Virus record (IMG/VR): IMGVR_UViG_2695420613_000010
Direction: 5' to 3' (one strand)
DNA length: 5,608 nt
From: a virus
Taxonomy: Duplodnaviria; Heunggongvirae; Uroviricota; Caudoviricetes
Shown here piece after piece: positions 2,076 to 4,296 of this stretch. Every line of letters starts with the position of its first letter. The first letter of the stretch is position 1. Made by a program: the position numbers and the translations under genes. The notes under the pieces were generated by a model. The model ran no database searches, had not been told where the DNA came from, and worked only from the letters and a program-made list of their open reading frames with translations.

Positions 2076-2143
2076 AAGTGCGGGTGCGTTGAGGATGCCT
2101 GACACATCAGCGGTGGCGAGGGATTTCTCCCCCGCCTGGTCTC

Positions 2144-2299
2144 TTACTCCTCAGGTTCGTAAGCTGTGAAGACAGCGACCTCCGTCTGGCCGGTTCGGAT
2201 TCGTACCTCGCAGAGGTCTTTCCTCGTTACCAGTGCCGTCACTATGACGGTTAAACAGATGACGATCAGGGCGATTAACATCGCCTTTTGCTGCTTCAT
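2144..2299 (-). CDS. hokD: Hok-family type I toxin (host-killing membrane peptide), HokD/RelF-like
   Basis: 51-aa product MKQQKAMLIALIVICLTVIVTALVTRKDLCEVRIRTGQTEVAVFTAYEPEE, which from memory matches HokD/RelF. Single N-terminal TM helix plus conserved C-terminal Cys, typical of Hok/Gef. AAGGAG lies 7 nt upstream of ATG 2299. The track ORF 2144-2356 is an in-frame upstream extension. Confidence 0.9.
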   Translation of the reverse strand: MKQQKAMLIALIVICLTVIVTALVTRKDLCEVRIRTGQTEVAVFTAYEPEE

Positions 2300-2542
2300 A
2301 ACCTGCTTCTCCTTGCCTTTCGGCGCGTAAGAGGCTAACCTACGTTTGTGAAGCATAGATTGGGCCTCAGATTAATGTTAAGCGTCTTGCAGGACGCGTA
2401 ATGTTAACTGGGGCTTTTCTCTGTCTGCCTTACGGTGGCATGCCCGAGGCAGACAGCCTCAAGCACCCGCAGCAATTCTACTTAACTCTCGCTTTACAGC
2501 AAACCGTTTTGCCCGATATGGGAATTCCCATACGGAATGAAT
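2300..2542 (-). promoter_or_regulatory. hok leader / regulatory region with direct repeats and palindromes
   Basis: Contains 9-bp direct repeats TAATGTTAA (2373-2381 and 2399-2407) flanking the inverted repeat GCGTC-TTGCAG-GACGC (2382-2397), a perfect 10-bp inverted repeat CTGTCTGCCT/AGGCAGACAG (2421-2430 / 2447-2456), and a perfect 16-bp palindrome TATGGGAATTCCCATA (2517-2532). No mok-like overlapping ORF and no clear Sok promoter/terminator could be identified by eye. Confidence 0.4.
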
Positions 2543-2647
2543 TCAGTTCCCCAGGCGCTCCATCAAAAACACAACCAGGCAGTAAACACCCACAACAGCA
2601 ATAACAGCCAGAGCGCCTTCCATTACCAGTGAAATATCATCCGACAT
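2543..2647 (-). CDS. Hypothetical 34-aa single-TM small membrane protein
   Basis: ATG at 2647 preceded by AAGGGAGGG at about 4 nt. Translation MSDDISLVMEGALAVIAVVGVYCLVVFLMERLGN ends at TGA 2545-2543 and has a hydrophobic core consistent with one TM helix. Below the ORF-track cutoff. Confidence 0.45.
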   Translation of the reverse strand: MSDDISLVMEGALAVIAVVGVYCLVVFLMERLGN

Positions 2648-2682
2648 ATTCCCTCCCTTGGTGTGAATCCCGGCGAACGTTT

Positions 2683-2760
2683 TTACCCCCACCGACAAAT
2701 AACATATACTAGAAAAGCAATAGCTATAGCAACGCCTGCAAATGCATCTGGCCGGCTCAT
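2683..2760 (-). CDS. Hypothetical 25-aa hydrophobic peptide, translationally coupled to the 187-aa ORF (ATGA overlap)
   Basis: ATG 2760-2758 overlaps the TGA stop (2759-2757) of the 187-aa ORF; GGGGGAG lies 5-6 nt upstream. Translation MSRPDAFAGVAIAIAFLVYVICRWG ends at TAA 2685-2683. Very short, so this is a weak call. Confidence 0.3.
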   Translation of the reverse strand: MSRPDAFAGVAIAIAFLVYVICRWG

Positions 2761-3320
2761 TGGTTCTCCCCCTGTGTCGCTTCTACTGCGATCTGACTGG
2801 CGTATTCGTTAATGGTAACGATAAGTTCTTGCTCGGCCTCATCCAGACAACTACCGATACCTCGCCTGTCCACTTCAGAAGCATCGAAATCTGCACGAAG
2901 CCTGGCGACCTTCAGGATTGCGGACAACACCTCATCAGGGATTGCCGGAGAGTTGGTTGACGTTTCCGAGATTATCCGAAAATTATTGGTTGACGAACCC
3001 TTATTTTCCCGAAAGTTTCCAGCCTGAAGCATGGCGGCGCGGTGACACCAGATAATCCAGCCAAGCGCCATATCCCATGCCATGTATTCTCTATCGCCAT
3101 TTTTTGCTCTGCGGCGATCTACAGATTCCCCGAAACGCTTCTCCATAAATAATTCATAGGCTGCCCGTTCATCCGATACTGATGCCAGTGATGCCAGTGC
3201 AATTTTTAATGCGGTAAGCATGTTGTTTTGATCTTCATCGAGTCCGAACGGTATTTCATCCCGTGATGACTCAATTCCGGTAATCGTGTTCTGTAGCCAT
3301 TCTTTGGTTAATTCAGTCAT
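2757..3320 (-). CDS. Hypothetical 187-aa protein of unknown function (cargo/moron candidate)
   Basis: Long ORF MTELTKEWLQNTITGIESS...ATQGENQ with ATG at 3320; no motif recognised. It follows a 126-bp AT-rich intergenic region and a GC-rich hairpin just before the start codon, and looks less GC-rich than the flanking conserved genes. Contains a tandem 9-bp repeat TGATGCCAG x2 (3180-3197) encoding ALASLAS. Weak Shine-Dalgarno. Confidence 0.7.
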   Translation of the reverse strand: MTELTKEWLQNTITGIESSRDEIPFGLDEDQNNMLTALKIALASLASVSDERAAYELFMEKRFGESVDRRRAKNGDREYMAWDMALGWIIWCHRAAMLQAGNFRENKGSSTNNFRIISETSTNSPAIPDEVLSAILKVARLRADFDASEVDRRGIGSCLDEAEQELIVTINEYASQIAVEATQGENQ

Positions 3321-3446
3321 TTTTCACTACCGCCCTTTCGGGCGGTCTCCTGATGTTCTGAGGGTGCAGGAATCCCTCCGGTTAAGGATTTAATAAAAAT
3401 CATTTCTGATTTAAATTTTCAGTGTTTAGTTGTTGGTTTATAGCCT
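3321..3446 (-). promoter_or_regulatory. AT-rich intergenic region with candidate promoter and a 5' stem-loop over the RBS of the 187-aa ORF
   Basis: Minus strand contains AT-rich ACTAAACACTGAAAATTTAAATCAGAAATGATTTTTATTAAAT with several imperfect -35/-10-like hexamers. A 7-bp GC stem with GAAA loop (3329-3346, ACCGCCC-GAAA-GGGCGGT on the mRNA) ends 9 nt before the ATG. A second short inverted repeat GAGGG...CCCTC lies at about 3360-3378. No T-tract follows the hairpin, so it is not a canonical terminator. Confidence 0.3.
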
Positions 3447-3758
3447 TTATGCTTCGGCCTTATTTCTCAGCCATACACAAACAGGACCATCTTCGGTGTC
3501 ATGTATCGAACCGATAAACCATCCCTCACCTTCTGGTCGCTCAGGTTCCCATGCTGAAATATCAGGGCCATCTGCGTCCAGATTAAAATCATCTTCATCC
3601 ATACTACGGATAGCCCACTGAAGATTATTTTTCTCCATCCAGGCGTTAAACTCTTCCGTTGAAATATATTCCCGACCATCACAGAATTTTTCATATTCAG
3701 GATGCGTCCAGCAGCCATATTCATTACGTTCCACTGGCATTTCTTTAATTACGCTCAT
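3447..3758 (-). CDS. Hypothetical 103-aa strongly acidic prophage protein
   Basis: ATG 3758 overlaps the TGA stop of the upstream 62-aa gene (ATGA); AAGGGGGG lies upstream. By manual count the product MSVIKEMPVERNEYGCW... has about 25 D/E against about 9 K/R. Confidence 0.75.
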   Translation of the reverse strand: MSVIKEMPVERNEYGCWTHPEYEKFCDGREYISTEEFNAWMEKNNLQWAIRSMDEDDFNLDADGPDISAWEPERPEGEGWFIGSIHDTEDGPVCVWLRNKAEA

Positions 3759-3943
3759 TTACCCCCCTTATTTAATTTTCTACGACACTTTTTACAATCA
3801 TCTGGACTTTCGAATGTATCCGGCTCACGCTCATTGCCAAAATACATCCACCCACCGCAAATACTTGTTATTTCACCTTCAGCAAAATAATGATGTTTTT
3901 TCGCCATAAGTGGCCTTGCCCAGCCCGGATTCGTTTTACTCAC
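3755..3943 (-). CDS. Hypothetical 62-aa basic protein
   Basis: GTG start at 3943 overlaps the TGA stop of the 118-aa gene (GTGA) and is preceded by AAAGGAGG at 6 nt. Product MSKTNPGWARPLMAKKHHYF...CKKCRRKLNKGGK is lysine/arginine-rich at the C-terminus with 3 Cys. Confidence 0.65.
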   Translation of the reverse strand: MSKTNPGWARPLMAKKHHYFAEGEITSICGGWMYFGNEREPDTFESPDDCKKCRRKLNKGGK

Positions 3944-4296
3944 TTGTTGCCTCCTTTGCGAAGCTCTGCGACTAACTCGTCACATATGTGCGTCAAAGAG
4001 CAAAGTTTGATTGCTGGATGTTCGCGCACCATCTCCACACCCTGCGCCCGCAATTCTGCCAGAAAAGCGTAGGGGTCAGTTTTTTCACTGTGGTACATGG
4101 CATCATAGATAATCATTGCAGCGACACCTGCCTGTCCTGCATCTGTGACGGATATATGCTCAAGGGCTACGGCCATTGCGTGTTTCAACCTCTCATTTTC
4201 CACCTCAAGCACCACACGATTAGCCTCCAGCTCTTCTATGCGTTTTTTTGCTGCTCCCAGCTCAACACGCAGCTCCTGATAGTTAATCTCGCTCAT
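3940..4296 (-). CDS. Hypothetical 118-aa prophage protein with N-terminal coiled-coil-like segment
   Basis: ATG 4296 overlaps the TGA stop of the 74-aa gene (ATGA); GGGAGGAAGGAGA lies immediately upstream. The N-terminal ELRVELGAAKKRIEELEANRVVLEVENERLK is heptad-like. Confidence 0.75.
   Translation of the reverse strand: MSEINYQELRVELGAAKKRIEELEANRVVLEVENERLKHAMAVALEHISVTDAGQAGVAAMIIYDAMYHSEKTDPYAFLAELRAQGVEMVREHPAIKLCSLTHICDELVAELRKGGNK

Follow-up and report, generated by a model that had tools for sequence, protein, structure and literature searches.

Do the genes at positions 2100-3446 of IMGVR_UViG_2695420613_000010, a 5,608-nucleotide (nt) stretch of DNA from a virus of the class Caudoviricetes (the window, meaning the whole stretch that was analysed), form a single cargo cassette, or are they separate pieces that happen to lie together? 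On the minus strand, which carries all genes of the window, this interval holds a gene for a protein of 187 amino acids (aa), two tiny open reading frames (ORFs) for hydrophobic peptides, which we call micro-ORF A and micro-ORF B, and a hok toxin gene (Table 1). In the initial annotation, 2300-3446 was suggested to be a single, previously undescribed module acting as a toxin, in abortive infection or in anti-defence. Our results indicate that the interval is probably a chain of independently shuffled small modules in the nin region rather than a single cargo cassette, because family A, family B and the 187-aa gene have independent distributions and partners.

The interval is 100% identical to E. 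coli O157:H7 chromosomes, and in strain PV15-279 it lies within a lambdoid prophage adjoining tRNA-Ser and mtfA. It is placed between replication genes (DnaT-like/P) and RusA-Q genes, that is, in the nin region of the early rightward operon. We surveyed 5426 E. coli genomes and compared the window by local BLAST with ~220 fetched loci. The exact arrangement of the window was found in 344 of the 5426 genomes, always at 99% identity or more; the block of A and B was present in 732 genomes, with a median of 3 copies; and some part of the query, mostly hok, was present in 4757. In total, the 5426 genomes contain hok at 11,785 places and the A and B block at 2,050. Only in the 344 genomes does the 187-aa gene accompany A, B and hok. 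Among the ~220 loci, BLAST breakpoints were sharp at ~2050, 2510, 2780, 3040 and 3320-3420, and the A-B-hok block was joined to differing downstream backbones, either DUF968-RusA-Q or DUF1367-DUF1364-DUF1133. Breakpoints within the interval and a backbone that changes beyond it argue against a variable cassette at 2300-3446 with fixed flanks.

The broader idea that this position is a variable cargo slot carrying addiction or defence genes was borne out. The slot beside hok holds relBE in the Qin-like phage PhiR42_1, Paa/AdfO in PPompW, and an acetyltransferase with a helix-turn-helix regulator in Evi. In Tritos (fetched locus L009, 1377-2711 and 3835-5591), PDC-S15 (E=1e-98) lies upstream of hok and RmrT/RmrA (E=5e-102) downstream, and in Rac-SA53 (L011, 1775-2872) the gene beside hok is PD-Lambda-2_C-like (E=1e-41). 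PADLOC-DB models gave no significant match to the 187-aa protein, to A or B, or to the flanking small proteins. This result, the independent distributions and the membership of the 187-aa protein in the Ea22/DUF551 class (below) all speak against one undescribed module. Prophage positions that flank hok are useful signposts in the search for cargo and defence genes; as a new defence or toxin candidate this interval matters little, and it looks like ordinary lambdoid mosaicism around the well-understood hok/sok.

Judged by its amino-acid sequence, the 187-aa protein belongs, in shortened form, to the mosaic early prophage proteins of the Ea22/DUF551 class. It matched nothing in Pfam, NCBIfam or PADLOC, nothing in the Protein Data Bank by sequence and profile searches, and not the Ead_Ea22 signature (PF13935) at E<=0.1; a literature search by protein accession also returned no match. 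Its description as an unrecognised ORF therefore holds in that it is unnamed and has no domain match, but it is not rare, as we found 4326 homologues, mostly longer DUF551-annotated proteins. There were also matches to 1049 clusters at 50% identity, and the matches are module by module (residues 1-47, ~48-100 and ~121-181), with orders and contexts of the modules varying in proteins of 69-463 aa; PHROG matches are likewise module-wise. Identity to DUF551-annotated proteins was 57-99% over 53-100% of the 187-aa query. The DUF551 domain (PF04448), present in 22 of 32 aligned relatives, is absent from the 187-aa protein after residue 181, and in relatives the third module is followed by any of at least three C-terminal domains (DUF551, a '...LKRNGLISVEDVLR' domain and another). 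The window gene stops six codons past the third module, with the tail TQGENQ*, at a junction onto the Shine-Dalgarno sequence (SD) of micro-ORF A. Because the DNA at this junction joins the start of a relative's linker (CAGGAGGAGAA) to the end of a DUF551 gene (CAGGAGGTG..CAATGA), the whole C-terminal domain was probably lost by deletion or recombination between two CAGGAGG microhomologies.

In Ea22 and its variants in Shiga toxin (Stx) phages, an N-terminal segment is followed by a coiled coil and then by a 'portable' C-terminal domain that can be exchanged, DUF551 being one version of it (PMC10834534, PMC4776307), and Ea22 is reported to be pro-lysogenic, influencing the lysis-lysogeny decision (PMC10834534). 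The 187-aa protein resembles Ea22 of lambda and Stx phages, and DUF551 proteins such as YfdS of CPS-53, in its plan of a short N-terminal module, a helical middle and an exchangeable C-terminus, in its place in the early operons of lambdoid prophages and in its extreme mosaicism; it differs in having neither the DUF551 domain nor the Ead_Ea22 signature and in ending after the third module. An AlphaFold2 model built from a 32-sequence alignment was all-helical with a disordered linker, at low confidence (pLDDT 52, pTM 0.37). The ratio of nonsynonymous to synonymous substitution rates (dN/dS) was 0.34 for module 2 and 0.46 for module 3, indicating moderate constraint. The 187-aa protein and A would both be accessory proteins translated from the early transcript, the former perhaps as a helical oligomerising scaffold without an effector domain, and the 187-aa protein is probably reduced in function and not a toxin.

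The most extreme form of reduction would make the 187-aa ORF a non-functional DUF551-type remnant, kept only for the ribosome-binding site and coupling signal that its 3' end provides to A. The C-terminal domain of nearly all relatives is gone, recombination has joined the tail to A's SD, constraint on the modules is weaker than on A (dN/dS 0.34-0.46 vs 0.18), and the structure prediction is of low confidence, all of which are consistent with this idea. The frame is nevertheless intact in all 344 genomes, dN/dS is below 1, and the short tail recurs behind other N-terminal modules and has thus spread by recombination, so that we consider a mere remnant unlikely.

The two micro-ORFs were predicted in the initial annotation to be SD-bearing and hydrophobic, and both properties were confirmed. 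Micro-ORF A has GGAG 5 nt upstream of its ATG and micro-ORF B has its own SD, GGAGG (2652-2656), 4 nt upstream; A and B have a grand average of hydropathy of 1.24 and 1.40 and 17-aa maxima of 2.66 and 2.95, respectively. Variation in both falls mostly at third codon positions, the other frames hold stops, and dN/dS is below 1 (0.18 for family A and 0.17-0.33 for family B). On this pattern of variation, A and B are genuine genes of two separate families under purifying selection, and we consider modulation of a membrane process their most likely role. In a check for an antisense or neighbouring antitoxin RNA, as a type I toxin would have, there was no Rfam match at the micro-ORFs and a promoter-like site lay on the opposite strand at 2682-2710; the region held 4 promoter-like sites where 2.6 were expected, no more than chance. 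Two conserved families of tiny membrane proteins, one of them translated (below) and the other, A, unannotated in reference phages, are a modest side result of this work.

Family A comprises peptides of 24-27 aa with the consensus M.WPEAF...ICRWG, of which the window copy is a 25-aa variant, and its length variation is an in-frame 6-nt insertion or deletion. In 112 of the 118 copies found with an A-only pattern, the start codon overlaps the preceding stop as ATGA. The genes before family A have at least three unrelated C-terminal ends, whose last codons (…GGAGGTG..CAATGA) serve as A's ribosome-binding site, and A would be co-translated with whichever gene precedes it. We found family A in 93 phage records; hok came next in only 56 of 102 cases. 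Annotations omit it in 933W (27 aa, MTWPEAF...ICRW[GR]; NC_000924.1 58832-58909, between ST933Wp77 and sokW) and in BP-4795 (fetched locus L220, 2040-2120); in both phages A lies directly behind an Ea22/DUF551-type gene, with the ATGA overlap.

The hok/mok/sok locus (2050-2510) is, by its sequence anatomy, a complete type I toxin-antitoxin system. The HokD-like toxin that had been proposed was confirmed by its match to Pfam HOK_GEF (PF01848; E=3e-23, 81.6 bits against a cut-off of 22) and by its identity as RefSeq HokD, and it has an N-terminal membrane helix with a 17-aa hydropathy maximum of 3.22. The promoter, also kept in 933W hokW, places the +1 G of hok mRNA at 2468; homology with most other hok loci stops at ~2510. 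In the minimum-free-energy fold of 2050-2468, the 5' tac element GGGUGCUUGAGG pairs with the 3' fbi element CCUCAACGCACCC. The terminator that had been noted stands at 2058-2075 and is the sole intrinsic terminator in a scan of the region. Gap-free alignment with 933W hokW/sokW, in which sokW occupies 2165-2235 of fetched locus L219, places the putative Sok RNA at ~2348-2418 on the plus strand.

The Rfam sok family RF01794 matched 2294-2468 (114.9 bits; gathering score 59). This match is to the hok mRNA leader strand, opposite to the strand of Sok transcription in the 933W annotation; it therefore marks the leader and not the antisense RNA, and strand calls from this model need care. At 2054-2140 there were also weak Rfam matches to isrK (27 bits; gathering score 50) and to rsmX, for which the 3' end of hok together with the terminator hairpin is the simplest explanation.

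The window's hok/sok presumably acts like its characterised relatives. By analogy with them, tac-fbi pairing would keep the stable hok mRNA untranslatable, and short-lived antisense Sok RNA would block translation of mok and hence of hok. When sok transcription stops, Hok would be made and would depolarise the inner membrane. Possible triggers include loss of the element, host shut-off and RecA-dependent induction, the last as shown for hokW-sokW, and the outcome could be addiction, abortive infection or an aid to lysis. In hokW-sokW, Hok toxicity and its neutralisation by Sok RNA have been shown (PMC8621323), and after induction this type I toxin-antitoxin system helps cells to lyse and release phage (Takada et al. 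2021, PMC8621323).

Compared to hokW-mokW-sokW of 933W/Sp5, the window locus is colinear from the -35 box through tac, the sok target, mok, hok and fbi, with ~92% DNA identity over 2072-2510 and no gaps from the -35 box to fbi, and micro-ORF A stands directly upstream of the locus in 933W too. The differences are that the 933W locus lies in the early-left (ea) region near attR, whereas that of the window is in the nin region; that the Hok C-terminus reads ...FTAYEPEE in the window and ...FVDYESEK in 933W; and that 933W has an unlike terminator and no micro-ORF B.

The Qin-type hokD (relF) of relBEF, as found in PhiR42_1, has a hok coding sequence, fbi and terminator nearly identical to those of the window, and the downstream genes of PhiR42_1 (the rem/DUF968/Q side) also match. 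The gene order that the initial annotation gave for Qin agrees with that of PhiR42_1 (Q-ydfU-rem-hok-relE-relB). Homology between PhiR42_1 and the window starts only ~15 nt before the hok ATG, however: in the Qin type the promoter, tac, mok start and sok are gone, replaced by the end of relE, whereas the window has a complete leader and no relBE. Window proteins had no RelE or RelB family matches in Pfam or NCBIfam. Because the homology begins so close to hok and the leader gives way to the end of relE, relBE is, by this comparison, a later intruder that truncated the hokD leader in the Qin type, and the window holds the intact arrangement. The earlier proposal that relBE was replaced here thus had the direction reversed, as it is relBE that displaced these leader elements in the Qin type. 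The window accordingly displays an intact hokD locus with its full leader and sok, in comparison with the hokD of K-12 Qin, which is truncated by relBE.

Micro-ORF B is tightly linked to hok. Homologues of B, sought by tblastn and degenerate DNA patterns, are 29-34 aa in length and follow the pattern ...ALA.IA....YCL...LM(D/E)RL... In 108 of the 114 copies found with a B-only pattern, a hok leader lies 50-100 nt downstream, whatever lies upstream; the other six represent one phage lineage that kept B and lost hok. Evi and Tritos, whose adjoining cargo is wholly different, have a 29-aa form (~50% identical) immediately before hok. At 116 hok loci, B is present in only ~30-40%, and several retain only the last B codons; the remnant in PPompW and the LMDHLSD remnants are recombination scars of this kind, beside an intact hok. 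The B paralogue XECs145 (ECs_5710 of Sakai prophage Sp6) was translated without induction, with a ribosome coverage value of 4.35 and coverage of 0.99 in LB medium (Hücker et al. 2017, PMC5597208 S2 Table), although ribosome-profiling reads may cross-map between paralogues. XECs145 has 3 amino-acid differences from micro-ORF B and its locus has the same order (DUF551-type gene, A, B, mok/hok, DUF968, RusA and Q); it lies in a different prophage, Sp6, and the published ORF is drawn 20 codons longer at the 5' end. We infer that lysogens produce B and that it is a small protein of the inner membrane.

These properties raise the possibility that B, and perhaps A and a further family, C, described below, are functional accessories of prophage hok/sok that tune, potentiate or protect against Hok in three-gene systems. 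The 50-100 nt spacing in 108 of 114 copies, the persistence of B beside hok in Evi and Tritos despite unrelated upstream cargo, the presence of three unrelated small-membrane-protein families (A, B and C) immediately 5' of hok promoters, purifying selection, and translation in uninduced lysogens, when hok/sok is also active, would all fit such a role. Most hok loci do without B, however, and the scars that keep its last codons beside an intact hok indicate that hok can persist when B is missing. Conversely, B is intact and hok is gone on 124 Shigella plasmid records and in the one phage lineage. The characterised hok/sok systems, R1 and hokW-sokW (PMC8621323), are not known to need a B-like protein. 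A spacing of 50-90 nt suffices to account for linkage. We therefore think it quite improbable that B is an accessory of hok/sok. The same low credence applies to the fuller proposal that B is a third protein component of a hok/sok subclass, a 29-34-aa inner-membrane modulator of Hok in lysogens, and that A is a widespread membrane 'trailer' peptide co-translated with Ea22/DUF551-type genes.

It is highly improbable that relBE gave way to a new operon in which the 187-aa protein and both membrane peptides act together as a toxin, in abortive infection or in anti-defence: relatives carry toxin-antitoxin and defence genes in the slot (relBE, PDC-S15, RmrTA and the PD-Lambda-2_C-like gene), the genes are tightly coupled (ATGA overlap and strong SDs), small membrane peptides are plausible effectors and the arrangement is fixed in 344 O157:H7-type genomes, but the three genes differ in distribution and partners, none has a defence match in PADLOC, Pfam or NCBIfam, the 187-aa protein is a shortened member of the class of Ea22, a protein with influence on lysis and lysogeny (PMC10834534), and relBE is a later arrival in the Qin type and not the ancestral occupant.

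Several points nonetheless weigh against a chain of independent modules. The 187-aa protein, A and B may have a joint role. The 187-aa gene is intact wherever the full arrangement occurs (344 genomes), and the tail without a C-terminal domain is also found behind other N-terminal modules (P0092 and L106); an intact gene and a recurring tail are as compatible with a short form that still functions as with a remnant that is tolerated. Proximity may also fall short of explaining why B is so tightly linked to hok and why families A and C occupy that position as well. Finally, the low-confidence model of the 187-aa protein limits comparison with remote folds.

Upstream of the 187-aa gene, the breakpoint at 3320-3420 coincides with a leader cassette of ~95 nt that is common to 81 of the ~220 fetched loci and precedes at least five unrelated N-termini, including MTELTKE..., MRKFKIIIET.../'DUF7167', MKHYLEK... 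and MVTLFRK.... It occurs, unannotated, at 4107 places in 2604 of the 5426 genomes. The cassette had no Rfam match, and an analysis of it as a structured RNA found no covariation, the sequences being too conserved. Because a hairpin separates its SD from the start codon, the cassette may serve as a split ribosome-binding site, or it may mark a boundary at which modules are exchanged. An AT-rich, promoter-like region had been proposed here; the AT-richness is real but modest (GC of 0.37-0.41 over 3340-3519), and a scan of 3340-3519 found no sigma-70-like site on the gene strand. We rejected a Pas small RNA as an identity for the cassette or its neighbourhood, since PasA and PasC map past Q, close to TerB and the genes for lysis.

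Table 1. Features of the window discussed in the text, with positions, strand and basis or remarks.
Feature	Positions	Strand	Remarks
RusA	275-634	minus	
DUF968 gene	647-1696	minus	
92-aa gene	1698-1976	minus	
hok mRNA, ~419 nt	2050-2468	minus	tac, leader, mok/hok, fbi, terminator
Intrinsic terminator	2058-2075	minus	AACCCGC-TTCG-GCGGGTT then T-run; terminator scan
3' fbi element	~2085-2097	minus	CCUCAACGCACCC
hok toxin gene, 51 aa	2144-2299	minus	RefSeq HokD WP_000813254.1; Pfam and NCBIfam Hok family
mok frame, 70 aa	2144-2356	minus	Overlaps hok, stop codon common to both; phrog_251, MokW-like, E=7.7e-33
sok antisense RNA gene (putative)	2348-2418	plus	Gap-free alignment to annotated 933W sokW (offset +183)
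5' tac element	2457-2468	minus	GGGUGCUUGAGG
hok promoter	2469-2510	minus	-35 TTTGCT (2498-2503), 17-nt spacer, -10 TAGAAT (2475-2480); read from sequence
Perfect 16-bp palindrome	2517-2532	unstranded	TATGGGAATTCCCATA; between B and hok -35 box; read from sequence
Micro-ORF B, 34-aa single-pass membrane peptide	2543-2647	minus	MSDDISLVMEGALAVIAVVGVYCLVVFLMERLGN; RefSeq hypothetical protein WP_001278460.1
Micro-ORF A, 25-aa single-pass membrane peptide	2683-2760	minus	MSRPDAFAGVAIAIAFLVYVICRWG; ATGA overlap with stop of 187-aa gene
187-aa protein	2757-3320	minus	RefSeq WP_000137954.1; three helical modules, no C-terminal domain
Leader cassette, ~95 nt	3321-3420	minus	AT-rich stretch, GAGGG...CCCTC hairpin, AGGAGA, second hairpin, ATG
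Hairpin CCGCCC-GAAA-GGGCGG	3330-3345	minus	
AGGAGA (family form AGGAGR)	3346-3351	minus	

The DNA between A and the hok promoter may also have been rearranged. The palindrome between B and the hok -35 box is conserved in fetched loci L002 and L004-L007, and PPompW keeps the palindrome with only the last 12 nt of B. In fetched locus L004 (~3000-3260), an 11-base-pair (bp) direct repeat, GGGTAAAAACG, flanks a B cassette of ~170 bp, and in 933W micro-ORF A is joined straight to the hok promoter at this repeat. Because the repeat flanks B in L004 and joins A to hok in 933W, the junctions suggest that an A-to-hok arrangement either gained B by insertion or lost it by deletion.

Family C is a third small membrane protein, of 59 aa with two hydrophobic segments and a strong SD (MKNALQFLFVAFWLF...AVMCIEYWR). 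It occurs immediately upstream of hok promoters in L131 (4647-4869), in L003 (near 8450) and in ~25 IMG/VR loci. On the 124 Shigella plasmid records, an intact B ORF, MLVLKGTLAIAAVMTIYCLIVVLMERFSD (with ATG and a GGAGG SD), lies upstream of icsP; the copy on the Shigella flexneri plasmid NZ_CP026794.1 is at 2497-2590 of fetched locus L285. Beside B on these plasmids is a decayed stump of ~60 nt from the hok promoter and leader, with no hok.

Turning to the flanks, domain matches agreed with the earlier assignment of DUF968 and rusA genes on the downstream side, but the 92-aa gene that had been called rem-like is not rem, because phage PPompW carries both this gene and a separate rem. On the other side, the coupled small-gene operon that had been described is present above 3447 as a run of tightly packed, compact genes. 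Within it, the 118-aa ORF at 3940-4296 (minus strand), which starts MSEINYQELR, has a weak Pfam match to Ead_Ea22 (E=0.004, below the cut-off) and looks like another Ea22-type mosaic gene of the nin region. The 62-aa ORF at 3755-3943 (minus strand), of which RefSeq has only a 50-aa version, contains the cysteine pairs ..SICGG.. and ..CKKC.. and, from this motif, may bind zinc.

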